Source of the DNA: a virus
Virus record (IMG/VR): IMGVR_UViG_3300022213_000237
Coordinates: 105,568-169,567 of that record
Reading direction: 5' to 3' (one strand)
Length of the DNA: 64,000 nucleotides
Numbering within the stretch: the first letter of the stretch is position 1; the number at the start of each line of letters is the position of its first letter. This document shows positions 41,738 through 64,000 of the stretch, one piece after another. The position numbers and the translations under genes were made by a program. Below the pieces are notes generated by a model. That model was not told the origin of the DNA, ran no database searches, and saw only the letters and a list, made by a program, of their open reading frames with translations.

Positions 41738-43756
41738 ATGGCCGAAAACAAATCACCTCCAGGACCATTGCAGGCCGTCGTCGATGCTAAGGTACAGCGC
41801 TCCGGTGGGCGTATCAAATTCTCTCTTCATGATATCGATGAAGAAGGGAAGCTCCGCAAGTCCAAGGAAGAAGAAAATCCGTTGGCGGGTACCAAGCTTC
41901 AAAAAAGTTTCGTCAATTACACCGAAGACGTTAAGCGTGGGAAGGAAGTTAATCGTCTATCTTTTGAGGTAGACCCGACACACGCAAATTATTATCAGTC
42001 GTTGTGGATGCCTAAGTGGGGGCAACTTCCTGACCATGTCTTAAAACAAGTCTCCCTAAAAGATTCGTTGGTCGCCTCGATACTCACCATGCGCTCAAGC
42101 CAGATGTCTGCGTTTGGACGCGAATTGCAAGATCGCTTTGCTTCTGGTTATCGTATTGAGCCTCGGCCAGGTGTGATGGAAGATGCGTCCAATGAGCAAA
42201 AGGAGCTGCTCCAGAAGAGAATTGAAGATGCCAGTAAGTTGATTTCTACTTGCGGCTCTATCGAGGGGGTTCGTTTTGATGAGCGCATGTCTCTTTCTAC
42301 CTTTTTGTCGCTGCAAACCCGCAACGCTCTAGTTTTTGGTCGTTTTGCCACAGAAATTATATACACCCGAGATCCAGACGGAACTCGTAAATTTCACAGC
42401 TACCGGCCTGTCGATGCTGGGACCATTTACCAAGCGGCACCACGTCAAGATCATCTCAATCAAGTACGTAAAGAGGCTCTGCACCTACTTCAGCAGCTAA
42501 AAGGGCCAGATGCAGAAAAATTGAGTGCAGAAAAGTTTGAAAACGACGAATACGCCTGGGTGCAGGTGCTGGATGGCAAGCCTCGGCAAGCCTACACACC
42601 GGAAGAGATGGTCGTTCATAACATGTTTCCGTTAACGGATATTGAGTTGCGGGGTTATCCGATTAGTCCGATTGAAACCGTAATCGATGGCATCGCCACC
42701 CATATGAACATTGTACAGCACAATAAACTGTACTTTCAAAGTGGTCGAGCTGCCCGTGGTATGGTCGTCATTAAGTCACCGGACGTAGACCAGGGACTTG
42801 TGGCGCAAATACGTCAACATTTTAACGCGTCTATTAATTCTGTTTCTAACGCTTGGCGTGTACCTGTTTTTGGTGTTGACCCCGAAGATAGCGTCGAATG
42901 GGCACCCTTTGATATGTCCTCGGGCCGTGACATGGAGTTTCAATACCTATCTGACCAAAACGCGCGGGAAATTTGTTCTGCGTTCTTGATTTCGCCAGAA
43001 GAGCTACCCGGCTATCAGCACCTTAGTCGCGGCACTAACTCTCAGGCGCTTAGCGAAAGCTCTAATGAGTATAAGCTTGAGGCTGCTCGAGATGTCGGTA
43101 TCCGGCCTCTACTTAATCATTTCCAAGATTTCTTAAATGATCACATTTTACCTCTTATCGACCCCGCAGTTGCGCAGCTGTGCTCGCTAAAGCTCTACGG
43201 TCTCGATGCTGATACCGAAGAGAAAGAAGATACAGGTCTCACCAATCGTATGCAGATTGACCTGACCATGGACGAAATCCTTGAGCGTAAGGAAAAAGAT
43301 CCAGTTGGGAAAGAGTGGGGAGGGAAGTTTCTCTTCAATCCTGCTTGGCAGTCGGTGCTAGATAAGTATTTTAAGGTTTCGGACATCAAAAAACATTTCT
43401 TTGGGTTACAGCCCACAGAAGACGATGAATATGTAAGAGACCCCTTTTGGTTCAATTACCAACAGCTGAAGATGCAGGCAGAGCAAATGGAGCAACAAGC
43501 TCAGGCGCAACAACAGCAAGCTCAAGCCGAGAGCGGTGGTGAAGTCCAGGACGAAAGCCAAGAACAGGATTCTCAATTAGCTCAAAGCGCAGACAAAGCC
43601 ATTGATTTGATGAGCAAGAGCGAGAAACAACTGCCTCCCGGTAAACGGCGTTTGTTACATCTACACAAGAAAATCGTGAAAGACGCCATGGCGGAATGGG
43701 AAAAAGACAGTAAAGAAGCCTTGGCTGCGGTCGTGCAAGCCGTGAAGGACGAATAA
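41738..43756 (+). CDS. portal protein
   Basis: RPVDAGTI, GYPISPIE, YFQSG..ARG, NAWRVPV, DMEFQ..ICSAFLISPEEL, GIRPLL portal motifs. Confidence 0.88.
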   Translation: MAENKSPPGPLQAVVDAKVQRSGGRIKFSLHDIDEEGKLRKSKEEENPLAGTKLQKSFVNYTEDVKRGKEVNRLSFEVDPTHANYYQSLWMPKWGQLPDHVLKQVSLKDSLVASILTMRSSQMSAFGRELQDRFASGYRIEPRPGVMEDASNEQKELLQKRIEDASKLISTCGSIEGVRFDERMSLSTFLSLQTRNALVFGRFATEIIYTRDPDGTRKFHSYRPVDAGTIYQAAPRQDHLNQVRKEALHLLQQLKGPDAEKLSAEKFENDEYAWVQVLDGKPRQAYTPEEMVVHNMFPLTDIELRGYPISPIETVIDGIATHMNIVQHNKLYFQSGRAARGMVVIKSPDVDQGLVAQIRQHFNASINSVSNAWRVPVFGVDPEDSVEWAPFDMSSGRDMEFQYLSDQNAREICSAFLISPEELPGYQHLSRGTNSQALSESSNEYKLEAARDVGIRPLLNHFQDFLNDHILPLIDPAVAQLCSLKLYGLDADTEEKEDTGLTNRMQIDLTMDEILERKEKDPVGKEWGGKFLFNPAWQSVLDKYFKVSDIKKHFFGLQPTEDDEYVRDPFWFNYQQLKMQAEQMEQQAQAQQQQAQAESGGEVQDESQEQDSQLAQSADKAIDLMSKSEKQLPPGKRRLLHLHKKIVKDAMAEWEKDSKEALAAVVQAVKDE

Positions 43757-45756
43757 TGGCTAAGATCAAGCGCCTGTCTAAAAAGACGATGACTAAAATA
43801 GCCGACGCCGTCGACGCCCTCTTCGACAAAATGAAGGTGCGGCTTCTCGGCCCTCGTATGGTGGATAAGAAACTATTTATCACCTACAATCGCGAGAAAT
43901 CGTTACCCGGTCTCTACGAGCAGGCGCATATCGAAGAGAAAGGTATTCCAGACAAGGAACATCTTGATCAATTGGTGCGTACCACTGAAAATTACTTAGA
44001 AGCAGTGCGTCATCGAGCGAAGGCTAAGACCGTGGTCGCGGTACAGTCATTTATGGCCGAAAATCCTGACGCTAATGTAACCGACGTCCTGGGTGGCGAA
44101 CTTGCTGATATTTATGGTCAGGTTAAGCACGAGGTACGTAGGATTGCGGATACCGAAGCCCAGCATTTTCGCAATGTTGGTGTGATGGACGGTATTGTAA
44201 GAGTTAGCGCCGCCCACGGCATAAGTGATCCGATAGTGTATTTTGTTACAGTCAGAGACCAATACAGATGCGAGGAATGTACCCGACTCCATTTGCTTGA
44301 AGACGGCATCACTCCACGTGTCTGGAAATTGTCCGAATTAGGACATGGATATCATCAAAAAGGTGATGAAAATCCAAAGGTTGGGGGACTACACCCACAT
44401 TGTAGGTGCGTGTGGGATGGAAACGCACCTGTAATTACAGAGTCTGGTATCAAACCACTTAAATCTGTAGAGATAGGCGACCGGGTATTGACTCATACTG
44501 GTAAGTTTAAGAAAGTTATTGGTACTTTTTCTAAAGATGGTCTACTGCCGGAGAAAACGGACGACGTATACCGAATAGAATTCAGGTCCCCGCTGGGAAA
44601 AATACACAAGCTGCGTGTTACCAACGATCACTTAATGTTAACTCAGCGTGGTTGGGTGAGGGCCGAGGCCCTGGTCCCCGGTAAAGATACATTAGAATAT
44701 CTATTCGCTTCTTGTGAGACATGCAAAAAAGCATTTCCTCATAATATTCAAAAGCCTCGAAAAAGATTCTGCTCTTATAAGTGTTCTATTTCTGACAAAA
44801 TAGGTAAACCAAGTCCTACTCTTGGCAGGAAAGCTACACCAGAAGAAAAAGAGTTGAGATTAAAATCCATTAAAGCACTTTACGAAAAGAAGCACAAAAC
44901 AACATTCCCCCAAAAGACTGTTAATTGTAACGGGTGCGGAAACGAGTTTACAGTTGAAACTGGGTATAGGGATAAGTCTGGACATTGGGTGTCTCGTAAG
45001 AATTATAAGCTCGAGTATTGCTCTCGATCGTGTATTTCTAAGGCCATAGCTCTCAAACAATGGTCAAGTGCTGAACATAGACTTGCTGTTTCGGAAGCTA
45101 ATCGAAAATCTATGTTAGAACAATATCGTACTGGCAGACGCAACCCTTTAGGTATTAAAGAAGCCAGGCAAGCTCTTTACGGTTTGGGTCGAGGCGGAAG
45201 TAAAGACGAGAAACGTTTGTATCAAACAATTAAAAGCTCTTACTTAGACGCCGAATCCAACTATTCGATAGGAAGATATTTTGCTGATGTTGCTATTCCA
45301 TCTATTAAGACAGTTGTAGAGTGGGACGGTGGTGGTCACTGGCTTGATGTATATAAAGGCAAAAAGACTATGGAAGAAAAGATAGCTGAAGACGCAACTC
45401 GTGATGAGTTTATGAGAAGTTTGGGGTGGCACGTTCTCAGATATACAGAAGAAACAGGGTTTAGCACAATATTCGAAGATATCCGGAGGGTGGCTCAAAA
45501 TTCTACTGGTCAATACTCATTCAGGCCTGTTGAAATTGTCAAAGTAGTTAGAATTCCAGCCAGCAAAGCCTCCCCTGGAAGGAGATTATATGATATAACT
45601 GTAGAGGATGATTCTTCTTTTGTTGTTATGGGTATTGTTTCTCATAATTGTTCTATGACCACACTTCTTCCCGGATTCGGATTTGATAGTGCCGGTATGG
45701 TTGCGTGGAAGGGTGAACATCACGACGAGTTTGAGCGCCAGCGTGCAGGGCTTTAA
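43756..45756 (+). CDS. MuF/SPP1 gp7-like head morphogenesis protein, intein-containing
   Basis: RRIADTE, D.yrCeeC, LHPHCR[intein]C motif; directly after portal. Confidence 0.85.
   Translation: MAKIKRLSKKTMTKIADAVDALFDKMKVRLLGPRMVDKKLFITYNREKSLPGLYEQAHIEEKGIPDKEHLDQLVRTTENYLEAVRHRAKAKTVVAVQSFMAENPDANVTDVLGGELADIYGQVKHEVRRIADTEAQHFRNVGVMDGIVRVSAAHGISDPIVYFVTVRDQYRCEECTRLHLLEDGITPRVWKLSELGHGYHQKGDENPKVGGLHPHCRCVWDGNAPVITESGIKPLKSVEIGDRVLTHTGKFKKVIGTFSKDGLLPEKTDDVYRIEFRSPLGKIHKLRVTNDHLMLTQRGWVRAEALVPGKDTLEYLFASCETCKKAFPHNIQKPRKRFCSYKCSISDKIGKPSPTLGRKATPEEKELRLKSIKALYEKKHKTTFPQKTVNCNGCGNEFTVETGYRDKSGHWVSRKNYKLEYCSRSCISKAIALKQWSSAEHRLAVSEANRKSMLEQYRTGRRNPLGIKEARQALYGLGRGGSKDEKRLYQTIKSSYLDAESNYSIGRYFADVAIPSIKTVVEWDGGGHWLDVYKGKKTMEEKIAEDATRDEFMRSLGWHVLRYTEETGFSTIFEDIRRVAQNSTGQYSFRPVEIVKVVRIPASKASPGRRLYDITVEDDSSFVVMGIVSHNCSMTTLLPGFGFDSAGMVAWKGEHHDEFERQRAGL
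44407..45648 (+). mobile_element. intein (414 aa) with zinc-finger and Vsr/DUF559-like endonuclease
   Basis: CVWDGNAPVIT start, VTNDHLMLTQRGW, YFADVAIP..VVEWDGGGHW..RDEFMRSLGWHVLR, LYDITV..IVSHN then Cys. Confidence 0.9.
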
Positions 45757-45966
45757 ACCGGCTCAAAGCCGGTCATGAATCCGATTTCGTCGACTGGCTA
45801 CTCATTAGTTTTCTCCTTGGTTAATGGCCGGAATGGGTAACCCCGTTTAGAGCCAAGTAAACAGAGTAACGTTCACGGTAGGAACAAGTCAAGGGCGGCG
45901 GCAATCTTTGCGGTATGGGTTTGTTGGACGCTACCGGATTTGAGGTCACTGCGTTTACATTTTTGA

Positions 45967-48900
45967 GTGAAGACGTCAATGAATAAGCTAACTAAATCGA
46001 TGGTTATTGATGGAATTGCAGCTTCACAAGCTATTGATTCTTCAGGTGAAATCTTAGACATCGAAGGCTTAGATATTTCGTCAGTTAAAGAGGGTACGGC
46101 TCAAATAAATTACGAGCACCGCTCTGATTCGTCTGATGGGGCGAGCGCCAATGATATTATTGGCCATATCACTTACGCGAAGAAGATTTTTGGTCCCAAA
46201 GACTGCGAAAACGACCGACAACTTAAGTACTGGAATTCGGTCCAGTTACCGTTTGTGTACATCAAAGCCGAGCTTTTTGACGGTGAGGGGCATGTCGGAG
46301 CACAGGCAGCGGCGGCATTGATTCGATATTACCACCTCCGACGCCTACCCCTTGTGGCGAGATACTCAATCGAGGGATCTACTTTAAAACGAGAAGGCAA
46401 CACCCTCAAACGCTCTATAATGAAGAGGGTTTCTCTCACCGTAAAACCTTGTAATCGTTCATGCATTTCTGGTGTTCTTTCCGATGGCGAAAAACCCGAA
46501 GCTTCACCAGACGCGCTTGAAAGTCTTAAGCGTTTTGAGAATCCAGGTCGTGCGAAACTCGGCGGCTACGAAGGCGAATTCGAACCCGTGGTTTTAGACC
46601 CTCTTCAGAAGATGAGAGACGCGGTGGAATCGCTGCGTGAGATGAATAATCTCAATAAAGCTCTTTCAGCTGGCGGCTTTGATGCTGTCCCTACAACTCT
46701 TACTGGCGGAGCCGCACTTTCGGCTGAGAATTTTGGCGACGTTGAGAAGAGAAAGAAATTTATTAAGAATCAGGTTCTTGGCGCCGTACGTGATTGGCGA
46801 GGTCGTGGTGACCTTCGGAAGTTTCTGAAGCATCGTATGCCCGACGCATCAGAGGACTTCATCAATCATTTTGCTGCTCTGGTCGAAGACTATCAACTTA
46901 AGAAGTTTGCCGACCTTGAAGCCAACCTAAATAAGGCAGTAGCTGGCGGCGCCGTTGCAGGTAAGACTCCAGCGGCTGCGATACAGCCCGCAGACAAACT
47001 GGCACCAAAGAAACCTGATTCTAAGGTCCAGACCAAGGCCAAGGCACAAAAGCTGGCGACCGTGGAGCAACATCACGCCAAAGTCAAAGCCACACAAGAA
47101 AACGAAGATAACCTAACCGAAGCCGACCTTGGCGATCAACCTTTAACCGTGCGCGGTAAAGCGGTACGCGCGAACGACAATATCACGTCTCCTCATTTTG
47201 ATGAGCGAACAGGTACTCTACACACTCAACGCGGGTCCTTCAAGATGTACTTGCCGCAGGAAGATAAATTCCCAGGCGCTTTAGAGTCATTCCATAACGC
47301 TCTGAATGATCCAAAGGCTACTCATTTCCATGACTACGCTACCAGTAATTGGCTGAAGGTTCACAAACTTCTTAAGGAGGGTCGTCTGCCTCCGGAAGTG
47401 ATTATGCACAGTGTGTTGTTTTCACAACTGAGTCCCAATACACCTGTCCCCATGCAGGAGCTAATGTACGGACATTTAGTGGACACCATGAAGGAAAAAG
47501 GGGTAGATGCCCGTTCGCCTTCATTCTCTTCTATTAAAGACGATTGGATAGGCAGAGATACCGGTAAGAAATTCCCTGAAGTGGCGGGAGATTTTTTCCA
47601 ACAGAATCAAGGAATCCGTCTCAAAAACCCAACATCTACTAGAGAAGCTGGAGATATGGGGAGTTTCATGCTTGCGAACAACAAGTTCAAAAACATGGAA
47701 CAGTATCATGGTCTCCATAATTCGTTAGTGGAGCTGTTTGGTCGTCATAGTACCGATGCCCGCGCAGCCGTTTCCGAGCTTATGGGTCATAAGCATAAAG
47801 CCAACTTGTGGGAAGCAAGGCGTGCTCGCGAAATCGAGAAAGGTAGACCCGATCCTGGTGAATATGCCGATGGCCCAGCAGTCCCAGGCCTAGCACCAAA
47901 GACTGGACGCTACATGGCGGCCATGATTGGCGGCGGCAACGTCCACGTGCCAGATACCCATTTTGCCCGTTATTTATTTGGTCTCGAGAAGGGTACGGAT
48001 AAGCGTTCAATTGCTTACCTCAAAAACACTTTATGGAATCCCAACAACAGTCACGTTCTTGAGGGTATCGATCGTTTTTACGCCACGAATCACCCAGCTG
48101 TCCAGCACATGATGGATCATCCTGTTTTTGGTAAACAGTTTGCTTCCCGCGAAGACGCTATTTTCCCCGCGTTCTGGAAGAATTGGATAGCTATCGCACC
48201 ACACGAGCGAGCACGCAAAATGAAGACCATGGCTTACAACGAAGCCACGGACCATAAACCTTTCTGGGAAGCCATCGCTCCATTTACGAAAGCAGAAAAC
48301 GACGATGTGAGCTTTGACTTTGGTGCTAATGCGGACACACATGCACATGCGCGTAAGGTTGTTAATCGATTACGAGAACCTAATCGTTCTGTGGGTCATG
48401 CTTTTGTGGATTATGTTGTTGGCAAGTCCCCAAAACGTCCAGATATTCACCCCGACCTGGAACGACATCTAGCTCGTCACGGCATTGTTGATCCAGCTGG
48501 ATACGGATTCGATGAATCTGGCCGCAGTATGCGCCGACCTATTCCGGGTCCGCGTAAAATTGGTCGCGGCGAGGAGCCTCGAGACCTACACAGATTCAGG
48601 ATGATGAATCGTGGCTGGGATCCCGGCTACGTCAAAGGCGAGCTAGAGAAGTCTGAATCCGGAAATACATTGCCGCAGCAAACGGCACGGCTGCATGCTC
48701 AATGGGTTGAGCAATACGGCGAGATTCCGGCGCAAATGCTATACTACGCTCACATCGTTCCTCAGCTGTTGCGCGCGAGCCGCAGAAACGAGAACGTGAT
48801 TGTCAAGTTTCAGCGTATAGCCGAAGATTTACGTAAGGCCGTACCTCAAGACCCGCCATTGCCAGAATTACCTAAACACGACACCACAGGCTTACATGAG

Positions 48901-50055
48901 TTTCAGAATTCTTGGACTAAGCCCGGTGAAATCGAACTAACAGCCGGCCCATTCAAAGGCAGTAAGCTCGCATATCTTGGTAAGGATAGCTTGAAAGGTA
49001 AGCATTTTGCTAAAGCCCCGACCGGCGAACTACATACTCTACCATTTAGTCAGGAAGGCAAGGCGTTCAAAATCAATGTTCCGCCTCAACCCGTCAAATT
49101 GCCGGCGTATGTGGATGCAAATCAACATAGCGATCCTCTTAATAAGACGTTTGCTCAGAAGTCGCTCTTACACGGCATTGATATCAATGATCGTGTGGGT
49201 CGCATCGAAACCGAAACACTTACGTCCAGCGCCCCAGGTGCCGGTTGGTATAAGAATCATGCGGGTGAGATGGGTTTGGTCAAACCTGATCCAAAAGGGG
49301 CTGCAGATTGGTGGGCTGATGAAGATCCAGAGTATGTTCGTGCTCAAAAATCTTACGACTTGCCAAGTCGTGAAGCTTTGTATCCGGTCATGGCCAAAGA
49401 ATTTTTCGGCATGGGTCAATATGTGCCCACTACCGCCAAGTTTACTCATCCTAAGACGGGCGAGCCTATGTCCGTTCAGCAGCGAGTTGCTGGCGCCGAA
49501 CATGTCGACATAGATGACGACGACCACGCCTACAATTTACACAAACTCTACAGTCAAGGCGAGTTAGATAAGTTAGGCCTCATGGATATCTTGATGGGTA
49601 ATAATGATCGCCATCAAGGTAATTTTATGATGACTTCAAAAGAGCCACATGTTCATCTAATAGATAACGGATTATCTTTGGATTACAAGAATCCGTTGAT
49701 ACCTCACGAAGTATGGCTATCTCATCAATGGATGACTGACCATATGCATGGGCATCCCAGCTTCGGCGCTCATCCGATTCATGCAGCCGCCACCAACTGG
49801 TTGCTTGGATTGGATCATGGAGAATTTGTTAAACAACTTCTTAACCATGGTGTTCCCGAAAACATTGTCAAGCATGCGTCGCGACGCATGCAGGCTCTAC
49901 AATTAGAAGCTGCGCAATCAAAACTCGACCCCGCGCAGCCGTTTACACGGGCCCGCGCTGGCCACGTTGTCGATAACCTCAATGGATTTGTCAATCGTTG
50001 GGGTTCACCATTTGTAGCGGCAAAACCTAAGGCCACAAATTCGGACTCAGAGTAA
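45967..50055 (+). CDS. prohead protease fused to HhH-GPD glycosylase-like and PI3/4-kinase/HipA-like domains
   Basis: N-term IDGIAA..IDSSGE..INYEH..IIGHI..YSIEG protease; VPGLAPKT..VPDTHFAR (~47881-47970); REAL..VPTT..DILMGNNDRHQGN..LIDNGLS (~49250-49950). Confidence 0.8.
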   Translation: MKTSMNKLTKSMVIDGIAASQAIDSSGEILDIEGLDISSVKEGTAQINYEHRSDSSDGASANDIIGHITYAKKIFGPKDCENDRQLKYWNSVQLPFVYIKAELFDGEGHVGAQAAAALIRYYHLRRLPLVARYSIEGSTLKREGNTLKRSIMKRVSLTVKPCNRSCISGVLSDGEKPEASPDALESLKRFENPGRAKLGGYEGEFEPVVLDPLQKMRDAVESLREMNNLNKALSAGGFDAVPTTLTGGAALSAENFGDVEKRKKFIKNQVLGAVRDWRGRGDLRKFLKHRMPDASEDFINHFAALVEDYQLKKFADLEANLNKAVAGGAVAGKTPAAAIQPADKLAPKKPDSKVQTKAKAQKLATVEQHHAKVKATQENEDNLTEADLGDQPLTVRGKAVRANDNITSPHFDERTGTLHTQRGSFKMYLPQEDKFPGALESFHNALNDPKATHFHDYATSNWLKVHKLLKEGRLPPEVIMHSVLFSQLSPNTPVPMQELMYGHLVDTMKEKGVDARSPSFSSIKDDWIGRDTGKKFPEVAGDFFQQNQGIRLKNPTSTREAGDMGSFMLANNKFKNMEQYHGLHNSLVELFGRHSTDARAAVSELMGHKHKANLWEARRAREIEKGRPDPGEYADGPAVPGLAPKTGRYMAAMIGGGNVHVPDTHFARYLFGLEKGTDKRSIAYLKNTLWNPNNSHVLEGIDRFYATNHPAVQHMMDHPVFGKQFASREDAIFPAFWKNWIAIAPHERARKMKTMAYNEATDHKPFWEAIAPFTKAENDDVSFDFGANADTHAHARKVVNRLREPNRSVGHAFVDYVVGKSPKRPDIHPDLERHLARHGIVDPAGYGFDESGRSMRRPIPGPRKIGRGEEPRDLHRFRMMNRGWDPGYVKGELEKSESGNTLPQQTARLHAQWVEQYGEIPAQMLYYAHIVPQLLRASRRNENVIVKFQRIAEDLRKAVPQDPPLPELPKHDTTGLHEFQNSWTKPGEIELTAGPFKGSKLAYLGKDSLKGKHFAKAPTGELHTLPFSQEGKAFKINVPPQPVKLPAYVDANQHSDPLNKTFAQKSLLHGIDINDRVGRIETETLTSSAPGAGWYKNHAGEMGLVKPDPKGAADWWADEDPEYVRAQKSYDLPSREALYPVMAKEFFGMGQYVPTTAKFTHPKTGEPMSVQQRVAGAEHVDIDDDDHAYNLHKLYSQGELDKLGLMDILMGNNDRHQGNFMMTSKEPHVHLIDNGLSLDYKNPLIPHEVWLSHQWMTDHMHGHPSFGAHPIHAAATNWLLGLDHGEFVKQLLNHGVPENIVKHASRRMQALQLEAAQSKLDPAQPFTRARAGHVVDNLNGFVNRWGSPFVAAKPKATNSDSE

Positions 50056-50059
50056 AGAT

Positions 50060-50512
50060 ATGATCTCCAACGGCATCTACAGACTATATAAGCTCCATCA
50101 CGATGAGCTAAACAATACGACCCGGAGTCTAGCTGGACGAATTCTCGTACACGATGGGCAGATTGAGCACCTTGAAGATCATGGCGGCATGGACCGTTTA
50201 CTACCCTCAGGTCCAGTCACTCCCGCGTTGGAGCGCAGATTCTCTCGTCTCACCTCCAGCGGTTACCACGAATTAATTAACGAAGCCGACATCGCGGCGG
50301 GCCATCATCCCGACGAAGTACAAGACCTAGATGTAGGTCCTGTTGAAGCAGAACATAAATTCATCATGACTGGCGATGGGGTTTCTACACCCGCAATGGT
50401 GGAAATGTGGGACGACATTATTACCGTCGATGGTCGTGAACTTGATGCTGTCGAAGCACACTCCCTACTCAATGAAGTAGCTGGCGGTAGGATTGTTCTT
50501 ACACCAATCTAA
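50060..50512 (+). CDS. hypothetical protein in head module
   Basis: 150 aa acidic ORF. Confidence 0.6.
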   Translation: MISNGIYRLYKLHHDELNNTTRSLAGRILVHDGQIEHLEDHGGMDRLLPSGPVTPALERRFSRLTSSGYHELINEADIAAGHHPDEVQDLDVGPVEAEHKFIMTGDGVSTPAMVEMWDDIITVDGRELDAVEAHSLLNEVAGGRIVLTPI

Positions 50513-50541
50513 GATCTATCGCTATCCCGAGCATAGGAACC

Positions 50542-51768
50542 ATGAGCAAAAATATTCTTAAACTTTTTGACGACCTCAAAAAAATGGACCCAACGCTCTC
50601 GCAAGCATTGGCAAATATTCGTGCTGGTCGCGCTACGCCTCAAGATGCAGATGTAGTCAGCAGGGGCCTATACACAGACACGATGATTCCGCGTATTGGC
50701 AATAAATACGCTTATAATGATCATGTTTCTCGACACGCAAATGATGGCATCCATACCCATTTAGATTTAAACGATTTTCGTCAAATCAATAAACAGCATG
50801 GCCAGCAACACGGGGACGCCGCCATTAAACAATTTGGTAACATTGCAGCCGACGTATCCCGCATGTTTGGCGGCAAAATGCATCGCCGTGGCGGCGACGA
50901 GTTTTCTGCTTGGTTTCATCGTCCGGAAGCTGCGCACGGGTTTGCGCGCGAACTCAGAAATCGGTTAGAGAAAACTCCTAAAGTCGCGGGTACACACAAT
51001 CTCGCAGCTTCTATCGGTATCGGCTACACACCAGAGCATGCCGAGAAGGCCTTACTCGAGGCCAAAAAGCAACTTGGTTCCACGGATCCAACTACAGGTC
51101 AACGTGTTAATGTGCATAGTGTAGGAAACGCTCCTACCGTAATCCATAGCTTGACTCACGAACAGCCTCCCGAAAACTGGAAGCCATCTAAAGGTCAGGC
51201 GCCCGGCCAAGCCAAAGAGTTGCCATCTTTAGCTCCAGCCGGATTACAATTTAATAACCCGCTCGCAAAAAGTACTGCTAAACAGCCGGTACCCTCAAAA
51301 CATCCGGCTCTAGAAGGTGGAAGAGTAGGTATCATGACTGGTGAAAATCCTTTTCATCCGGCTACCGCCTCTGGCGGGAACGCGGGTCTCGAAAACGAGT
51401 TACGGAGTAGGGGGTTGCGTTTTGAGAAGGTTAAGGGAAAGTATTCTGAAGGTGAGCCAGAAAATAGTTTCATCATTCACGACGTCGATGCTCCAACGCT
51501 AATGGATTTAGGTAAACGCTACGGGCAAGACAGCGTACTCCATTCTCATAATGGTACTCATAAACTAATTTACACAAACGGACCTAATGAAGGCACATAT
51601 CACCCTGGTCACGGATTAACGGTTCATCCACAAGAGCCGGAAATGTACTATTCGACCTTAGTCCATAATGGGAATCCGGTTCACTTCACTATGAACTTGG
51701 ATTTTGATCAGAAACTTCCTTTGTCTTCTCATTCGACTCAGAAGCCTTCGAACCACGAGCAGCAATAA
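50542..51768 (+). CDS. GGDEF diguanylate cyclase domain fused to DUF3293-like domain
   Basis: TDTMIPRIGN, DLNDFRQIN..HG..HGD, RRGGDEF (50890-50904), ASIGIG, AEKALLEAK; C-part IMTGENP..ENSF..GKRYGQDSVL. Confidence 0.85.
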   Translation: MSKNILKLFDDLKKMDPTLSQALANIRAGRATPQDADVVSRGLYTDTMIPRIGNKYAYNDHVSRHANDGIHTHLDLNDFRQINKQHGQQHGDAAIKQFGNIAADVSRMFGGKMHRRGGDEFSAWFHRPEAAHGFARELRNRLEKTPKVAGTHNLAASIGIGYTPEHAEKALLEAKKQLGSTDPTTGQRVNVHSVGNAPTVIHSLTHEQPPENWKPSKGQAPGQAKELPSLAPAGLQFNNPLAKSTAKQPVPSKHPALEGGRVGIMTGENPFHPATASGGNAGLENELRSRGLRFEKVKGKYSEGEPENSFIIHDVDAPTLMDLGKRYGQDSVLHSHNGTHKLIYTNGPNEGTYHPGHGLTVHPQEPEMYYSTLVHNGNPVHFTMNLDFDQKLPLSSHSTQKPSNHEQQ

Positions 51769-52594: not shown

Positions 52595-53521
52595 ATGCCT
52601 AAAAAGACTTACACAAACGAAGAGCTGAACGCGCTGGTGGCCGAGTTTTCCGCAGAGTTCGACCAGCTCGTTAAAGCAGAAGTCGCAAAAAGCGGTGCTG
52701 CTTTAGCCAAGTCTGAAGAACTTCGTAAGGACGATGAGTCCAGCGATGGAGATGACCAGAAGTCGCCTCCTCCAGACAGCGCTTCCGCAGATGCTTCTTC
52801 ACCTGCTCCGGCAGCTTCCGCAACTTCTCCAGACCCAGCTTCTCCTGCAGACGCTTCGGCACCTCCTGCAGACGCTTCGGCACCTCCGGCTCCCGACGCT
52901 TCTGCTTCTGCTCCGGCAGACCCCGCAGCTTCTGCGGCAGGAAGCGATCCTATGGCGGCTCTGACTCAGGCGTATTCGCAACTCTCTCCAGATGAGTTGG
53001 CTATGCACTTTCAGGCGCTTAAGCAGGTTCTTATGGCCGGTCAAGCTGGCGCCGAAGGCGCTGGAATGCCCGCAGACCCTATGGCAGGCTCTTCTGCTCC
53101 GGCTGCAGGTCCAGCAGCAGTAGCTCCTCTCGCAGGAGAAGGAAGCCAGCCTGTCGATCCAGCATCGACGATGGCGCTCAAGAGCGAAAACGAAGAATTG
53201 ACTCTCGTCAAGTCTGAGCGTGATGCCGCCGCAATGAAAATTGCGGAACTTGAGAAGTCCGTTGCTGCACTTACCGATTCACTCGGCAAAGTGTTGGCTC
53301 AGCCGATGCGAAAATCAATCACCGGCAAAGACATCGCAGGTGTTCTTGCTACTGACCCGAAACCGGCTCCTAAGTATGAGTCGATGACGAAGTCTGAAAT
53401 TACTAAAAAGCTACTCACTGTAGCTAACGACCCCGCACTGAAGAAGTCGGATCGTCAACTGATTAACAACTATTACAAGGGTGAAGCAAATGTCGAAGCC
53501 CTTGCACACCTTCTCAGCTAA
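52595..53521 (+). CDS. capsid scaffolding protein
   Basis: Directly upstream of MCP; coiled coil plus Ala/Pro/Asp low complexity; many xxKS(E) motifs. Confidence 0.65.
   Translation: MPKKTYTNEELNALVAEFSAEFDQLVKAEVAKSGAALAKSEELRKDDESSDGDDQKSPPPDSASADASSPAPAASATSPDPASPADASAPPADASAPPAPDASASAPADPAASAAGSDPMAALTQAYSQLSPDELAMHFQALKQVLMAGQAGAEGAGMPADPMAGSSAPAAGPAAVAPLAGEGSQPVDPASTMALKSENEELTLVKSERDAAAMKIAELEKSVAALTDSLGKVLAQPMRKSITGKDIAGVLATDPKPAPKYESMTKSEITKKLLTVANDPALKKSDRQLINNYYKGEANVEALAHLLS
52842..52887 (+). repeat. 21-bp tandem repeat (about 2.2 copies) encoding PADASAP
   Basis: CTCCTGCAGACGCTTCGGCAC at 52842 and 52863. Confidence 0.9.
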
Positions 53522-53559: not shown

Positions 53560-54963
53560 ATGGCCGCAGGACTAATTGAAAAGCTAGACGAGCTGCGCAA
53601 AGCTTTGGAAGCGGGTAACTTCAACGCCCGTCCTTCGAGCCTTGTTCAGGGCTCCGCAATGCAAGTGGAAGACATTTCGCCAGTGATGGTTAATGTCACC
53701 TACAATGACAAAACTCTTAAACTCCAGAAGAAACTGGGAGTGAAGCCCGCGAAGGGAACCTTCATCCAGTTCCTACGACGTTTGTCGTACGGTACCTGGG
53801 GCGGATCCGCTCAGCTCGAAGGAGCAGTTGGTAATGAGCAGACCGGTGATTACGTACGTGCCGGTATTCCGATGGCGTACTACTCGGAAGTTCGTCGCGT
53901 CACCCACGTGGCATCGCTCGTCAAGACTGTTACTGGCGAAGATCCGAAAGAGCTGGAAGCGGAAGCCGCTGCTCTTCGTCTCGCTGGCGACATCGAGTTC
54001 GACTGTTTCCGTGGCAAGGCCGACTTCACCAACGCAGGCGTGTTCGATGGTAACCCCAACGTCATCCCCGCGCTCGCGAACATGATTGGTCTCGAAGTTC
54101 AGATCCGTCAGTCCGATCTGCAGAGCAACACCCAGGACCTGATGTTCGAAGCCTACGGCTCGGGCCTCTCGGTCGTCATCAATGGTGGCTCGACGCTGTC
54201 GAAGAGCAACATCGAAGACGCTCATGTTCGTAGCCAGATGAACCACGGCACTGCGGACAAGCTCTTTGTCGACCCTCTCGTTCTGTCCGCACATAACAAA
54301 ATTATGTGGAACAACGAGCGCGTGGTTCTCGGCGCTTCCGCCCAGGATGCGACCGGTCAAGACCTTCGTCGCCAGTTTGTTTCCGGCGGTATGGTCGAAA
54401 TCGAAGCTTCCCGTTTCCTCTCGGGCAAGTTCAAGTCGAGCCGTCCTCGTCTTAACGCTCCTGCGGCACCGTCGATTGCTGTTGACGCGACCAACGCCTC
54501 GAGCACGGCATTCGTTGCTGGCCAGGTTTACACCTACTACGTTACGGCTGAAAACAGCCTCGGCGAAGGTTTCCCCTCGGCTAGCGCGTCAGATACTGTT
54601 ACCGTCAACGGTAACCGCATCGACGTGACCATCACCCCCGGCGCAGGTACGCAAACGTTCTTCAACGTTTACCGTTCACCCGCTGGTGGAAGCGCGGCGC
54701 AAGCTCGCTTCATCGGTCGAATCGTGAACTCGGGTGCTGCGACCACGGTGTTCCGAGACCTTGGCAACAAGATCCCCGGATTCGTGACCGGCTTCCTGGT
54801 GCAAGAAGACACGATGGAACTCATGGAACTGTCGGCATACAGCCGCATGAAGCTCGCGGTCACCGACCTGTCGGAACCCGAAGCCCACTTCAGATTCCTT
54901 TGCTTGAAAGTTACGGAGCCCAGAAAAAATTGTTTGATCGATAACCTCCGTGGCGATCTGTAA
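53560..54963 (+). CDS. major capsid protein (SPO1/Twort-like)
   Basis: N-arm LRKALEAG..GSAMQVE, IEFDCFRG, GLEVQI, C-terminal APAAP..YTYYVTAEN..GE..PS..FNVYR; strong RBS; followed by terminator. Confidence 0.88.
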   Translation: MAAGLIEKLDELRKALEAGNFNARPSSLVQGSAMQVEDISPVMVNVTYNDKTLKLQKKLGVKPAKGTFIQFLRRLSYGTWGGSAQLEGAVGNEQTGDYVRAGIPMAYYSEVRRVTHVASLVKTVTGEDPKELEAEAAALRLAGDIEFDCFRGKADFTNAGVFDGNPNVIPALANMIGLEVQIRQSDLQSNTQDLMFEAYGSGLSVVINGGSTLSKSNIEDAHVRSQMNHGTADKLFVDPLVLSAHNKIMWNNERVVLGASAQDATGQDLRRQFVSGGMVEIEASRFLSGKFKSSRPRLNAPAAPSIAVDATNASSTAFVAGQVYTYYVTAENSLGEGFPSASASDTVTVNGNRIDVTITPGAGTQTFFNVYRSPAGGSAAQARFIGRIVNSGAATTVFRDLGNKIPGFVTGFLVQEDTMELMELSAYSRMKLAVTDLSEPEAHFRFLCLKVTEPRKNCLIDNLRGDL

Positions 54964-54997
54964 TTAGATAACACTAAGTAATAATTAAAGAATTAAG

Positions 54998-55032: not shown

Positions 55033-55088
55033 GTAAAATGTGGTTATTGCTGGTGTTTTGTTAGATCTTATGCTATTAGTACATTAAA

Positions 55089-56849: not shown

Positions 56850-56858
56850 TAATCATGA

Positions 56859-58881: not shown

Positions 58882-58885
58882 TTGG

Positions 58886-59119: not shown

Positions 59120-59478
59120 AGATCAACTTGCTAGGAAAGAACATGTCCGAGACTCTTCAAGAAATTCAGTCCCGTATCGAACCCACTCGTAAACAACTTG
59201 AGACCATGCTTGAACGCAAAGAGCTTAGCCCAGCTCTCTTCTTCAAAGCCCTCATGGGTCTGGCCTATGAATATGTGGTTGCTGACCATACAGAAGAAGC
59301 TGCTGGGTTAGTGATGCAAATTCCCCCCGATTATTGGCGCGGCGACGCCAAGCTTCAGATGCAACAAGACGTACAGTATTTTCAGCGGTCGGCCACCGTT
59401 TATCGCTCTCTGCGTGATTGCGGACTGCTGATGTTCGCGTTCCCATTAGGTCAGCCTTCAACTACGGCAAAGGCATGA
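59116..59478 (+). CDS. hypothetical protein
   Basis: 120 aa, GTGA overlap. Confidence 0.55.
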   Translation: MKINLLGKNMSETLQEIQSRIEPTRKQLETMLERKELSPALFFKALMGLAYEYVVADHTEEAAGLVMQIPPDYWRGDAKLQMQQDVQYFQRSATVYRSLRDCGLLMFAFPLGQPSTTAKA

Positions 59479-59870
59479 CGATGGATATCGGTGACAGAGT
59501 AATAGATGGGGATGAAGTCAAAACCTTTCAACGCAAGGCCATTGTCTTGTATCTCGACACTGTTTTTGGCGACAGATATCAGGAAGCAGATATCTATTTT
59601 GAAAACCCTGTGCCTGTAAGAGATCACGAGAACAACATTGTTGGTTGGGCTACTTTGCATCGGGAAGGTAAGGTGTTGGAGGCGGAATTTTTCTTGGATT
59701 ACCACAACCCAATCAGATTGGATATTGAGGCGGGGAACAAATGGTACCCCACTTTAGATGGAATATTTTTTACCTCAACCACAAAACTTCATGTCATGTA
59801 CGGTGGTATCAATCAAATCGTCTTGAAGCGAGGTCCTGAAAATTTACCATTTAAGGCAGACCCGCTATGA
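59475..59870 (+). CDS. hypothetical protein
   Basis: ATGA overlap at 59475 preferred over ORF-track start 59418. Confidence 0.5.
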   Translation: MTMDIGDRVIDGDEVKTFQRKAIVLYLDTVFGDRYQEADIYFENPVPVRDHENNIVGWATLHREGKVLEAEFFLDYHNPIRLDIEAGNKWYPTLDGIFFTSTTKLHVMYGGINQIVLKRGPENLPFKADPL

Positions 59871-60076
59871 ATCAAAAGTTCGCGCGTGTCATGGTATCTA
59901 TAAACAGGACCATGTGGTGGGTGATGCTGGCTACCATACCAGTAGATATTTTTATAGTATTCTTTTGGCTAGAAGCCTCAAAGGTCTTACCGCAAGGCCG
60001 TGGATTAGCTACATCTTCTCTTGTTTTTGCTGCCATTAAAACGGCCTGGTGCTGGCTGAATCGCGCGCCTAAATAA
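59867..60076 (+). CDS. small two-TM membrane protein
   Basis: Two hydrophobic segments in 69 aa; ATGA overlap. Confidence 0.5.
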   Translation: MNQKFARVMVSINRTMWWVMLATIPVDIFIVFFWLEASKVLPQGRGLATSSLVFAAIKTAWCWLNRAPK

Positions 60077-60109
60077 GCGGCAATCTTGGGATCTGAGGAT
60101 ATTTGAAAC

Positions 60110-60511
60110 ATGCTGCTTTCTGCTCGAATGATGACCGATGTGGGAGACGTCAATACTTTCCGATACGTGGATAGTGTTGAATTCACTGAGGGTGATGCTC
60201 CAGCCGTCTATTTTCAGTTGATTGATAGGTCTAAGGATAAAGACTACAGACCACAGGGTCGTCGTTTTTGTCCCGCAGCAGCGGCCACGCTTCAGGTCGT
60301 AATAAAGCTCGTTGACTCGGCCAAAACTATTACTCGTTTTGCTTCTCAGCCCTTTGCTGAAGACCCTTCGATTTGGATGCTGCAGCTTCAGTCCACCGAC
60401 GCCATCAAGGGTACCGTCAGTTTCCTTTTGACTCTGACCGAAGGCGCGGCGACCACTCGAGGACGCCTCGACGCCGCCCTTTCGGTTTCGTCTCAAGTAC
60501 AGGGGTTCTAA
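60110..60511 (+). CDS. putative virion structural protein
   Basis: Beta-rich 133 aa; GAGG RBS; precedes the neck-like gene. Confidence 0.55.
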   Translation: MLLSARMMTDVGDVNTFRYVDSVEFTEGDAPAVYFQLIDRSKDKDYRPQGRRFCPAAAATLQVVIKLVDSAKTITRFASQPFAEDPSIWMLQLQSTDAIKGTVSFLLTLTEGAATTRGRLDAALSVSSQVQGF

Positions 60512-61360: not shown

Positions 61361-61375
61361 TTACGGACACTTACC

Positions 61376-63901
61376 ATGTTTGATATGCGCCAAATTAACA
61401 GAATGATGGATGCGGTCAAATCGCATTTGAGCGATAGAGCACCGCACCAGGGTGCAGCCTGTCATTTAAGCGGTAATTGTTATGTCCAAGCCGAAGCTCT
61501 GCATCACCTGCTTGGTGGCGAACAGACTGGATGGGTTCCGCACACACTCCAAGTTGATGGCGGACCACATTGGTTTCTTCGCCATAAACACAGCGGTACG
61601 ATTTTAGACCCGACTCGCCCAGAGACACCTTTGTCTTACGACCAAGGCAAGTTCACCGCCTTTCTTACTAAGCAGCCATCAAAACGCACTCAAGTGGTGT
61701 TGAATCGCATCGCTGGCGACCATGATCCCGTCTCTAAATCCGAAGACTTTGATAAGGCAGTTTTAGATCCTAATTCTGGGTATAGATTTGAGCATAAAGC
61801 CATACCCATGACGAATCACTATGGGACAACTCCCGAGTCTCGTTATTATAATATACATCAAGTCAGCGCCTTTGCTCCTAACGGTGAAGAAATAGGTAGA
61901 GCCACCTTTAATCACGATAAAGCGTCTAATACGTTAGAAACTGGAAATACCTTTGTACACGAAAATCATCGTCGTAAAGGTATTGCGTCAGCAATGTATT
62001 CGCATGCAGAAAAAGCTACTGGAATGAAGATAATTCCTTCCAAAGCTCAGTCTAAAGATGCTCAAGCTTTATGGGCAGCAAATTCTGCGAATAAACAATT
62101 TGGTAAATCCGAATCCTCAGCCGACCATAGCACAAAAACTGCGGCCAGCATCGCCGTCTTCAATAGTGAAGGTCACTTGCTAATGGGTCAGCGTAACGAC
62201 TCAAAGCGATGGACATTGCCTGGCGGCAAAATGGATGTCGGAGAACTGCCAGAAGAGTGTGCGCGCCGAGAACTTCAAGAAGAAGCCGGTCTACAAGCGA
62301 AGCGACTTAAATTCCTTGGTCGCGGAGTTGGAGGCAAAGACAGCGACTGGACAGTGTACTCTTTCGAAGCTCATTGCGACGACAAACCTGACGCCGGCAA
62401 CGACCCCGACAAAGAGTGCGATTCTTGGGAGTGGATTCCTGTAGCTGATGGTTTGCCGAAGGAAATCTCGAACCAGTTACATAATCGCGATCGCGACGTC
62501 ACTCTCCAGCTACTAGGCCTCCAATCAGGAAGCTTGGAGCCAACAGAGTTATCCAAAGGTTTAAAGCATAGATTCTTGGGCGCTATCGCCGCCGCAGGAT
62601 TAGCGATGTCGCCTCAAGCTCTTGCCGGTGAGCCCGACAAAAAGCCAAGCCTTAGCGGTCTGCACCACGAATTACATCCCATTGCGCAGCTTGAGTCTTC
62701 TGGTGGGAAAAATATTAACCATAAACCACACTCGCTTGGTGAATTTCATACTGCCGTCGGGGCAGTTGGATTGAAGCCAAGCACGGCACATGACGAATAT
62801 ATGAAGTCGTCGTGGTTACAAAAAGTATTCCCAAACATTAGCGATCCCCAAAAATTCACGCACGAATTCAAGAGGAACGACGCCCTCTACAATCACACAG
62901 CCACATCCCATTGGCACCGACTCAAAAAACTGTTTGGCGGTGATACAACTAAAGCCGCTTATGCGTGGCGTTGGGGTCAGGGAGCAGCACTTCGTGACGC
63001 TCCGGAAGTACAGGCCGGAGACCCTTATGTCCAGGCGTATCAGAAGCTTACTAGCAAAGCACGTGCGGCAGCAATGGGCCGACACCTGATCAACCCGCTT
63101 TCGAAAGAGGAAGTCGACAAGTGGACCTCAATGGGCTCGAAACCTTCAAAAGCTAAGTCGCTGCGTACTTTTGATCATTATTCGATGCAACCCGGTCTCA
63201 AAGAGTTGGACCCTAAATTCCAGGGCACTGGGTCGGTGGGGCCCGAGAAAGGTAGACCCAAACGTATTCCGCGTGTATACATGTACGCCGCCGATACCGC
63301 ACCAGAACAGCATGTGGCCGCCGCGTCTCGTGCCAAATACAGGGTTGAGTTACCGGCAGCAGCTAAATTCTATGACATGGGCGCAGATGAGCTTGGGTTA
63401 CTAGAACCCAAAATGCGTTCAACCAAATATGGCCAATTCTACGAACCAGCCGACCTCGACGAAGTAGAGCGTAAGATAAAGCGTTTAGGTTATCACGGTT
63501 ACCATAATTACATGTCTACCGCACCTAACGCTTACGCCGTATTTACTAAGGTTAAAGCCAAAGAATTGAAGAAGACGGAGTCCTCAACAGACCATCTCTC
63601 TAAAGTAGAACCCTGGTTCCAGGCCATGTTGGCACAGAATGAAGCCCGTAAGCAGAAGATTAATGAGTTAGTGCAAACCACCAGAGGTTCTGTATGGGCT
63701 AGTCGCAATGGTGGGCATTTAGTTGTAGGCAAAGACCCACATGATCGTAGTCGTTGGCGAGTTACTCCCATCCAAAGCGATGGTACGCCTACGAGCCACA
63801 CCGTTGCTCCAGACCATACCGAAGCACTCAAGACTGCTCATTCTCTTGGCGCCAACCTACTTGATGAGCCGGTTAAAAACTACCGTTGTAAAGCGGCCTA
63901 A
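61376..63901 (+). CDS. polyvalent protein: papain/transglutaminase-like + GNAT + Nudix + lytic transglycosylase-like + ART-like + unknown domain
   Basis: GNCY..HWFL..LDPT; VHENHRRKGIASAMY; GGKMDVGELPEECARRELQEEAG; QLESSGG..GAVGLKPSTA..AYAWRWG; HYS..LDPKFQGTG..RVYMY..GYHGY. Confidence 0.8.
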   Translation: MFDMRQINRMMDAVKSHLSDRAPHQGAACHLSGNCYVQAEALHHLLGGEQTGWVPHTLQVDGGPHWFLRHKHSGTILDPTRPETPLSYDQGKFTAFLTKQPSKRTQVVLNRIAGDHDPVSKSEDFDKAVLDPNSGYRFEHKAIPMTNHYGTTPESRYYNIHQVSAFAPNGEEIGRATFNHDKASNTLETGNTFVHENHRRKGIASAMYSHAEKATGMKIIPSKAQSKDAQALWAANSANKQFGKSESSADHSTKTAASIAVFNSEGHLLMGQRNDSKRWTLPGGKMDVGELPEECARRELQEEAGLQAKRLKFLGRGVGGKDSDWTVYSFEAHCDDKPDAGNDPDKECDSWEWIPVADGLPKEISNQLHNRDRDVTLQLLGLQSGSLEPTELSKGLKHRFLGAIAAAGLAMSPQALAGEPDKKPSLSGLHHELHPIAQLESSGGKNINHKPHSLGEFHTAVGAVGLKPSTAHDEYMKSSWLQKVFPNISDPQKFTHEFKRNDALYNHTATSHWHRLKKLFGGDTTKAAYAWRWGQGAALRDAPEVQAGDPYVQAYQKLTSKARAAAMGRHLINPLSKEEVDKWTSMGSKPSKAKSLRTFDHYSMQPGLKELDPKFQGTGSVGPEKGRPKRIPRVYMYAADTAPEQHVAAASRAKYRVELPAAAKFYDMGADELGLLEPKMRSTKYGQFYEPADLDEVERKIKRLGYHGYHNYMSTAPNAYAVFTKVKAKELKKTESSTDHLSKVEPWFQAMLAQNEARKQKINELVQTTRGSVWASRNGGHLVVGKDPHDRSRWRVTPIQSDGTPTSHTVAPDHTEALKTAHSLGANLLDEPVKNYRCKAA

Positions 63902-63911
63902 TCTTGGTAGC

Positions 63912-64000
63912 ATGGAATCGCTACCTCCTGAAGATATTCAGCTGCATAAATCCTTAAAAGGATACACCTTCGGTGAGCCACAACACGAGCCTGAGCTGGG
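63912..64000 (+). CDS. partial ORF running off right edge
   Basis: ATG at 63912, MESLPPEDIQLHKSLKGY..., open to window end. Confidence 0.5.
   Translation, partial: MESLPPEDIQLHKSLKGYTFGEPQHEPEL

Follow-up and report, generated by a model that had tools for sequence, protein, structure and literature searches.

Genes and modules at the locus

The stretch of DNA analysed here (64,000 nucleotides; hereafter the window) covers the head genes of a myovirus related to Myxococcus phage Mx1, with a circular genome of 169.6 kb. A short peptide motif, hydrophobic-x-Lys|Ser/Ala-Glu in its core form and, judging from sequence, probably the site of the head protease, recurs along genes that all lie on the plus strand. 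The portal protein (41738..43756; PF04860, phrog_12) carries motif sites near both termini (41852, 41897, 43610), the scaffold (52595..53521) carries 8-9 copies, and the major capsid protein (53560..54963; phrog_752) carries one at 53593 (L12-x-K14|A15) that is invariant in 13 sequences. Capsid K14 aligns with K24 of PDB 5LII, a Herelleviridae capsid protein of 463 aa, and entry 9ROW is that same protein at 439 aa with its chain starting at residue 25 (an offset of 24 residues); as K14 is thus aligned to the Lys before the 9ROW chain start, we read the motif as the capsid maturation site. The genes at 55089-60511 (HNH-type, ThyX, dNMP kinase and small ORFs), the MuF gene and the adaptor at 60512 are within the span and outside the motif system. 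MuF (43756-45756) owes its extra length to an intein (the Mx1 MuF is 268 aa) and has no toxin domain C-terminal to it, so a MuF-toxin reading was dropped. Promoter and terminator scans stayed at chance level, searches for tRNAs and single-protein locus scans found nothing, and PADLOC returned generic kinase/Nudix matches only.

The 1362-aa product of 45967..50055 opens with a domain (45997..46500) that its fold, catalytic residues and gene position identify as an SPO1-like prohead serine protease of the HK97/assemblin fold. Structurally, this domain matches T4 gp21 (5JBL; Z 9.6, rmsd 2.7, 124 aligned) and herpes proteases (Z 7.2), with prohead proteases as its BFVD matches, and it aligns with the SPO1-like protease (hhalign 97.7%); His51 (46117) and Ser134 (46366) are invariant in 50 protease sequences, and the gene sits between portal and scaffold/capsid. 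Searching PDB sequences with the protease profile returned no matches. Behind the protease lie motif site K231, with the lysine present in 115 of 118 homologues, and a copy of the capsid N-terminal arm (together 46651..46730), which reaches 49% to a capsid N-terminus and is also present in the SP10 protease. Residues 324-775 (46936..48291) form a linker and an HhH-GPD DNA glycosylase fold that resembles the 8-oxoG glycosylase 3N0U (Z 14.8, rmsd 3.1, 207 aligned) and keeps Lys645 and Asp663 (at least 90% conserved), from which glycosylase activity is predicted. The following 120-aa private insert (48292..48651), with the motif on both sides (48283, 48643), is covered by at most 4 of 119 homologues, is absent in Mx1 and matches no Pfam or PHROG family; homologue alignments around it end in a cluster at 770-793 and start at 884-902. 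After site 48829 come an SH3-like barrel and a PI3/4K-HipA-like kinase (48838..50052; PF00454). The earlier note had asked whether such sites sit in disordered linkers, and the structure model of the fusion (mean pLDDT 74.9) agrees, placing the five junction lysines at helix ends, beside or inside low-confidence or non-regular linkers. Weak motif matches at residues 625, 675, 820 and 1016 were set aside as chance, being poorly conserved or inside folds, and Foldseek with the whole model returned no match at E<0.001.

Downstream, a 150-aa protein (50060..50512), which in relatives (L007, L016) is fused to protease and GGDEF, precedes a GGDEF domain with intact signature (50542..51270; PF00990, E 4.6e-11) and, after site 51262, a SAM-lyase-like/DUF3293 module (51271..51768; PF23780, E 1.3e-5, at 25.6 bits under the curated cut-off of 28). 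In Mx1 the GGDEF gene ends at the Lys equivalent to site 51262, and the SAM-lyase-like module is located in another protein.

The 841-aa protein strings together a YunG-like module (61376..61738; phrog_12251), a GNAT (61757..62107; PF13508/PF00583), a Nudix hydrolase (62108..62557; PF00293, E 2.4e-24), an SLT-like lytic transglycosylase (62627..63106; ESM Atlas cosine 0.92, PF01464 clusters), a tentative ART-like module of the His/Tyr/Glu type (63107..63574; family m15) and a sixth module (63575..63901) whose Mx1 equivalent follows a motif site in another protein. Neither this sixth module nor the one at L001:1289 has a match in Pfam or PHROG, and a single-sequence fold of the whole 841-aa protein was unusable (pLDDT 38). 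At 63912..64000, with a site at 63942, begins an 818-aa GNAT-ParB-GNAT-kinase polyprotein that is complete over the circular join (L001:56-2512) and is followed by p103, p261, P613 and P587. Profile or structure matches thus back the domain calls first made from the letters alone for protease, HhH glycosylase fold, kinase, GGDEF, GNAT, Nudix and SLT; the ART-like call draws on motif inspection and on ART-PolyVal (PF18760) matches in the Mx1 counterpart protein, with no direct Pfam match in the module itself.

Distribution of the motif

All 12 of the pentapeptides checked against the coordinates of the earlier note translate as given. Codons at the sites differ between copies, marking a peptide motif and not a DNA repeat, and a DNA-level repeat or recombination site at the junctions is accordingly not supported. 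Statistically, the loose pattern proposed in that note, [LFVM]xK[SAG], is enriched about 2-fold in six named head-module proteins (28 vs 13.3 expected by shuffling) and occurs at chance level in the other ORFs (111 vs 111.1 expected in 40,894 aa), so that about half of the loose matches are chance. The strict form, [LFVMI]xK[SA]E, separates the two sets of proteins sharply: 9 vs 0.8 expected in the same six proteins and 9 vs 0.6 in an independent set of eight further head-module genes past the circular join (L001), or 18 vs 1.4 in total, against 3 vs 6.0 outside the head module. The three sites 62549, 63098 and 63566 that had been claimed for the 841-aa protein fail the strict pattern; the first two have canonical sites at the equivalent junction in relatives, and the third is matched there only by an alignment break at 723-738. 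An apparent genome-wide avoidance of KSE outside the head module (initially 1 vs 9.8 expected) was rejected, as it ranks only 10th of 3,030 tripeptides in a Markov control and gives p 0.08 in Mx1.

The enrichment is replicated in Mx1 (16 vs 1.3 expected in the head module, 5 vs 4.6 elsewhere) and in about 170 related loci. Across this clade it is highest in the scaffold (19.9x) and p103 (10.9x), followed by the 841-class (6.6x), 818-class (5.8x), portal (4.5x) and protease (4.4x), against 0.3 for both adaptor and MuF, 0.4 for terminator, 0.6 for terminase and 0.7 for sheath, and so appears to track proteins of the prohead interior. Within folded modules the strict motif is scarce (16 vs about 40 expected, in a partly circular comparison from which the HhH profile, which spans a junction, was excluded). 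The idea that cargo is "address-tagged" fared unevenly: sites within the 30 N-terminal residues are enriched in capsid, scaffold and p261 and, among relatives of the 841-aa protein, occur in 14 of 50 (3.9 expected), but many polyproteins that start with Nudix, and 14 Nudix genes that stand alone, have no leader site, and no shared targeting or amphipathic consensus emerged upstream of the sites.

Module exchange and proposed cleavage and delivery

Evolutionarily, the motif marks domain borders. Homology breakpoints fall within 12 aa of a site in 467 of 1951 cases, where shifted sites give 248 +/- 15 (with a maximum of 295 in 500) and control motifs 0.87-1.01x, and motif-bounded fragments recur whole and in differing orders among relatives, where entire modules, including 2H and HExxH types, are gained, lost or reordered at the sites in polyproteins of up to 3,203 aa. 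Domain swapping at the motif, for which the earlier note suggested a comparison of related phages, is seen in the relatives, even if some junctions have degenerate sites only (the glycosylase/896 segment in Mx1 and the Nudix/ART borders).

Because these enzymes are strung on the capsid-maturation motif, we posit, as the reading we find reasonably likely, that the motif is a prohead protease cut site whose use has been extended to cargo enzymes that are packaged in the head, cut apart and ejected into the host. A very unlikely alternative is that the motif stays uncut and serves as a tag for binding or assembly, or is a preferred fusion linker, and that the polyproteins act whole, like the N4 virion RNAP, which is packaged uncut (PMC5512222). 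Fusion of genes that began or ended with sites would leave junction sites without selection for cutting, and several motif copies end amphipathic helices; however, the junction motif is identical to the capsid maturation site, nearly all junctions have kept it in the 22 relatives compared with the 841-aa protein, and a signal-like segment within a chain is most easily explained by a cut ahead of it.

That cryptic signal-peptide-like segment (62558..62626), recognized in a clade comparison of SLT modules, directly follows site 62549 and has a basic n-region, an Ala/Gly/Leu h-region and an Ala-x-Ala end. It is found in 53 of 55 clade SLT modules, against 0-11% of nine other module types, and its position just behind a hydrophobic-x-Lys site in 50 of the 55 argues that the chain is really cut; if so, virion cargo whose signal peptide is unmasked by the protease would represent a novel means of delivery. 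In a few stand-alone SLT genes the leader ahead of the signal is only 5-8 residues long, and for these products plain secretion from the cell that makes them could be enough. A second, rather unlikely, alternative places all the products in that cell: the head protease would cut the sites, releasing the enzymes at maturation, and they would act late and not be injected, the unmasked signal exporting the transglycosylase to aid lysis or exclude superinfection. The segment suits host Sec export in either cell, no targeting leader was found, and prohead proteases can cut cytoplasmic substrates (T4 gp21 on CD-NTase, PMC12991175). Yet the motif is not avoided in non-head proteins, as fits a protease that works only inside the prohead; one of the polyproteins includes the protease in its own chain, Mx1 has a separate annotated endolysin, and polyvalent proteins that act early typically carry such a set of modules (PMC5512222).

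A third possibility, clearly unlikely in our view, accepts packaging and cutting and assigns the products to the core or to DNA care, with no host-directed counter-defence role; modules would stay in the head, degrade, or protect and repair incoming phage DNA (glycosylase, Nudix sanitiser). Indeed, the scaffold, P587 and P613 are low-complexity proteins with candidate sites every 20-160 aa, as in T4 core proteins, the glycosylase fold is nearest to 8-oxoG repair enzymes, and mCpol is degenerate in the window and Mx1. On the other hand, most modules keep their catalytic motifs, and GNAT, ART, kinase, 2H and HExxH modules come, go and change places rapidly, which is a signature of conflict and not of housekeeping.

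Mechanistically, for injected cargo we infer cleavage, packaging and ejection as follows. The motif would have been inherited from SPO1-like ancestors, where it served maturation of capsid, scaffold, portal and protease, and this clade would have extended it to cargo. Late polyproteins would co-assemble in the prohead interior, the protease fusion probably by way of its capsid N-arm copy. The protease would then cut after Lys, a step for which the identity of the site is strongly suggested: capsid and portal would be trimmed, the scaffold and the low-complexity core proteins destroyed, and the polyproteins split into single domains of 12-50 kDa. By analogy with T4 Alt/IP, folded domains would remain in the head and be ejected with the DNA, to act in the first minutes on targets predicted from folds: nucleotide signals (Nudix, GGDEF, mCpol and, in relatives, 2H), DNA or restriction (SAM lyase-like, glycosylase and ParB-like modules), host proteins (GNAT, ART, kinases) and the cell wall (the transglycosylase, its signal-like N-terminus exposed only by the cut). 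Since any motif-flanked domain would be released, modules can be freely gained, lost and reordered, as the comparison of relatives shows. A fuller picture, which we regard as possible and on balance doubtful, is that the capsid-maturation site serves as a universal release linker and gives the virion an exchangeable set of at least a dozen enzymes, among them a transglycosylase with an export signal switched on by the cut, which host Sec exports after injection to remodel the wall; cyclase/mCpol modules would meanwhile provide or jam nucleotide immune signals ahead of any phage gene expression. Rounding up of Mx1-infected cells following adsorption has been reported (PMC6070905). Comparison of the modules with anti-defence families of tested function gave no match, and a literature search found no proteomics or cleavage data for this clade.

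Comparison with known systems

Herelleviridae (SPO1, SP10, phi812) share homologous capsid, protease and scaffold, the N-arm copy behind the protease, and the motif in portal, protease, scaffold and capsid N-terminus; they differ in having proteases of about 250 aa without cargo and no effector polyproteins in the regions compared (L190, L191). On sequence grounds, then, the motif itself is ancestral, and the novelty is its use as a linker between effector modules. Mx1 (OR576727.2) has a syntenic head module, a capsid 72% identical and the same enrichment of the motif, but differs in module content and order; its genes are annotated merely as protease, NUDIX hydrolase, kinase and cyclase. Our literature search, which covered few subscription journals, found no description of Mx1 protein processing and no published phage cargo-polyprotein linker code. 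In SPN3US and phiKZ (gp245/gp175) many internal head proteins are likewise processed at one motif, but that motif is Ala-x-Glu, shuffled enzyme modules are absent, about 80% of SPN3US head proteins are uncut, and cuts remove terminal propeptides and do not split domains (PMC10052503).

T4 is another parallel (IPI-III, Alt and gp21; PMC9026906): a short hydrophobic-x-P1 motif is common to capsid, core and cargo, the cargo includes an ART, and gp21 has the protease fold seen here. P1 is Glu there (gp21 specificity I/L-x-E) and Lys here, and T4 cargo consists of single proteins trimmed at their ends, unlike the multi-enzyme chains with internal sites described above, one of them fused to the protease. 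The T4 capsid targeting sequence (CTS) comprises the N-terminal 10 residues, ending in Glu, and no CTS-like consensus was found here; with a Lys-based motif and a leader in part of the cargo, these proteins do not class with the CTS-bearing internal proteins.

Phage polyvalent proteins (Iyer et al. 2017, PMC5512222) are likewise mosaic, multi-domain late-gene products with 2-15 unrelated effector domains to a chain in shuffled architectures, and have in common with this clade GNAT, ART (PF18760 in Mx1), kinase, Nudix, ParB, 2H, lysozyme and MPTase-like domains. The polyproteins here have that build as well and are encoded among late virion genes, between portal and sheath; of the hallmark domains, a Pfam scan of the window's own proteins gave no match to MPTase, ART-PolyVal, PBECR or LPD, ART-PolyVal has matches in the Mx1 and L193 counterparts, and relatives carry an HExxH module. 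The paper proposes packaging and possible proteolytic release, mainly through autoproteolysis by MPTase, places assemblin-like peptidases at C-termini only and, in the passages compared, defines no junction motif, whereas here the assemblin-fold protease is N-terminal and the junctions are marked by the capsid-maturation motif. Were cleavage to occur as posited, it would be a concrete mechanism by which polyvalent proteins yield individual effectors, as has long been proposed. The motif would then be a sequence rule for telling the proteins packed in the head, and the points at which they are cut, by which a large clade could be mined for injected effectors, with dozens of motif-bounded module families as candidates for pre-expression counter-defence. 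The clade has a member in culture, Mx1, whose host is genetically tractable. By analogy, the system in the window would work like T4 internal proteins and phage polyvalent proteins combined.

A lysine motif confined to inner-head proteins

The window derives from a single contig of 169,567 bp whose two termini overlap by 126 bases; the genome is therefore circular and its head module continues at the contig start (L001), with the last ORF of the window, an 818-aa polyprotein, whole across the circular join (L001:56-2512). Its capsid protein shares 72% identity with that of the cultured Myxococcus phage Mx1 and ~25% with those of SPO1-like phages, the head-module gene order is syntenic with Mx1, and the host is likely myxobacterial. 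In many relatives (L004, L005, L012, L013, and others) the protease gene lies in inverse orientation to those of scaffold and capsid, either by itself or together with the portal and terminase genes. Inteins with endonuclease domains occupy the large terminase (window 37461-40721) and MuF (43756-45756), the Mx1 orthologues having neither, and a 586-aa endonuclease-like gene (55089-56849) is inserted directly 3' of the capsid gene; several relatives have a homologue in the corresponding position, and Mx1 has none.

On translation, every motif coordinate in the earlier note proved correct, and the loose pattern it suggested counting, [LFVM]xK[SAG], showed about twofold enrichment in the six proteins it named (28 versus 13.3 expected) and none in other ORFs (111 versus 111.1). 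The strict pattern, [LFVMI]xK[SA]E, was found 9 times versus 0.8 expected in these six proteins, 9 versus 0.6 in eight downstream genes outside the earlier reader's view, and 3 versus 6.0 in the remaining ORFs (40,894 aa); a version with Arg for Lys showed no enrichment. Mx1 behaved similarly (head module, 16 versus 1.3; elsewhere, 5 versus 4.6). The residue after Lys is by preference Ser, with Ala second and Met, Asp, and Gly tolerated, and the next is preferentially Glu/Asp.

Among ~170 related loci, with 2,733 non-redundant proteins assigned to classes by best match, the strict motif was enriched in scaffold (19.9x), the downstream protein p103 (10.9x), the 841-aa (6.6x) and 818-aa (5.8x) polyprotein classes, downstream p261 (5.7x), GGDEF (5.0x), portal (4.5x), protease (4.4x), and downstream P613 (3.5x), and depleted or flat in adaptor and MuF (0.3 each), terminator and p292 (0.4 each), terminase (0.6), sheath (0.7), and HNH (0.8), while the capsid carries a single N-terminal copy (40 of 44 sequences versus 2.8 expected). 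Proteins cut by a protease that is shut inside the prohead would be expected to show such a distribution. In the SPO1-like phages SP10 and Adastra the motif occurs in capsid, portal, and protease, and 7-9 times in scaffold, but is near-absent from neck/tail genes; it is therefore ancestral, and the earlier suggestion of a linker grammar undescribed for this group holds for its use between effector domains rather than for the motif itself. Bacteroides phage DAC19 (L192) has the same motif where its capsid protein begins, as do several of the head genes upstream, and the Lys code thus reaches beyond Herelleviridae and the Mx1-like clade.

The motif as a probable prohead protease site

Residues 11-~170 of the 1362-aa protease fusion (window 45967-50055) match the T4 gp21/assemblin fold (Z 9.6) and, by hhalign, SPO1-like prohead proteases (97.7% and 96.8%); His51 and Ser134 are invariant, as are capsid Leu12, Lys14, and Ala15. 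Capsid Lys14 aligns to Lys24 of a Herelleviridae capsid chain (PDB 5LII, 463 aa). The same protein in 9ROW has 439 aa, and its Gly5 is Gly29 of 5LII; the 9ROW chain hence begins immediately after the aligned Lys24 and can be read as the putative mature form. Behind Lys231 of the fusion (window 46651-46730) lies a copy of the capsid N-arm, near-identical in Mx1 and also present in the SP10 protease, and thus probably general among SPO1-like phages; it is a candidate route of protease and cargo into the shell.

Support for cleavage that is independent of motif enrichment comes from the 841-aa polyprotein (from window 61376), in which Lys394 is followed first by basic residues and then by an uncharged run of Ala/Gly/Leu that closes with Ala-x-Ala (window 62558-62626), a segment that only cleavage behind Lys394 would expose; the lytic transglycosylase (SLT) module comes next. 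Scored by a heuristic without SignalP, such a signal-like stretch precedes 53 of 55 clade SLT modules and 0-11% of nine other module types; a hydrophobic-x-Lys lies at most 14 residues upstream in 50 of the 55, mostly behind acidic residues. The simplest explanation for a signal peptide in the middle of a chain would be that cleavage releases it, though the segment could instead be a membrane anchor. The motif might also be an uncut tag, and SPN3US, where the majority of head proteins may remain uncut (PMC10052503), counsels caution; we nevertheless consider it very likely that the chains are cut at these sites.

Module exchange at motif sites

Alignments to Mx1 break at motif sites: the Mx1 protease fusion lacks exactly residues 775-895, its GGDEF gene ends at the Lys equivalent of window 51262 (the SAM-lyase-like domain being in a different Mx1 protein), the final module of the 841-aa protein is found within its P613 counterpart, and its counterpart of the 818-aa protein has neither ParB nor the second GNAT. 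In two relatives (L007 and L016) p150 and GGDEF are joined to the protease, a motif site preceding GGDEF. Across 119 long protease fusions, Lys231 is retained in 115 of 118, and Lys957 in 67 of ~85, while region 800-880 is represented in at most 4. Clade-wide, 467 of 1,951 homology breakpoints fell within 12 aa of a site versus 248 ± 15 with circularly shifted sites (maximum 295 in 500 shifts), as did 161 of 471 breakpoints recurring at least 5 times (versus 60 ± 7), these figures being effect sizes rather than exact probabilities because related sequences are non-independent; three control motifs showed no enrichment at breakpoints (0.87-1.01x). Cut in silico, the proteins yield fragments that group into recurrent families; the order of these families varies widely from chain to chain, the longest chain having 3,203 aa, and one GNAT family had 11 distinct upstream and 13 distinct downstream neighbors in 15 occurrences. 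The domain swapping sought among related phages was thus borne out, 21 relatives of the 841-aa protein behaving alike. Giant motif-punctuated polyproteins of 2,068-3,203 aa in relatives (L028:1345-10956, L091:1503-7748, L022:12339-18851, L165:1831-8037) consist mostly of modules without a Pfam match.

The proposed linker position also agreed with an AlphaFold model of residues 5-1199 of the protease fusion (46 sequences, mean pLDDT 74.9), in which Lys231, 323, 775, and 957 are predicted to terminate helices beside low-confidence or irregular linkers and Lys895 to lie in a disordered stretch, low confidence in the private insert being partly due to scarce homologues.

Cargo modules and their likely fate

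The window encodes a module whose fold matches HhH-GPD glycosylases (3N0U, Z 14.8) and an SH3-like barrel with kinase, besides GGDEF, GNAT, Nudix, and SLT modules, a SAM-lyase-like module (match under the cut-off), an ART-like module (assigned from motif alone), a YunG-like module, and two modules of no named family. Past the circular join are two GNATs, a ParB-like module, a kinase, and a degenerate mCpol; relatives add ART-PolyVal and, by eye on consensus motifs, 2H phosphoesterase, Alt-type ART, and HExxH peptidase. Activities and targets are predicted from domain identity. In this genome and in Mx1 the mCpol domain (L001:5147-5500) lacks the catalytic Asp motifs that are intact in 23 of 39 relatives; it might make or bind a decoy signal, with possible relevance to Panoptes-type defense (PMC12657218).

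The modules might alternatively be core or DNA-care components. P587 (587 aa, L001:9669-11432) is of low complexity and internally repetitive, has Cys-rich ends, and carries 12 motif sites; it is a candidate degradable core protein, and its Mx1 counterpart carries the SAM-lyase-like module. Packaging of the cargo in the head seems probable to us. The enzymes could still act late, inside the producing cell; on balance we lean towards ejection of the products as effectors. T4 offers a precedent, its head proteases trimming cargo that is later ejected, large fusions included (PMC9026906), and polyvalent proteins (PMC5512222) comprise the same domain classes as the cargo here. A literature search found no description of a capsid-maturation motif as linker in shuffled multi-enzyme chains. 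The individual ingredients are already known; what appears new is the use of a maturation motif to link modules, and the observation is real and directly testable in Mx1.
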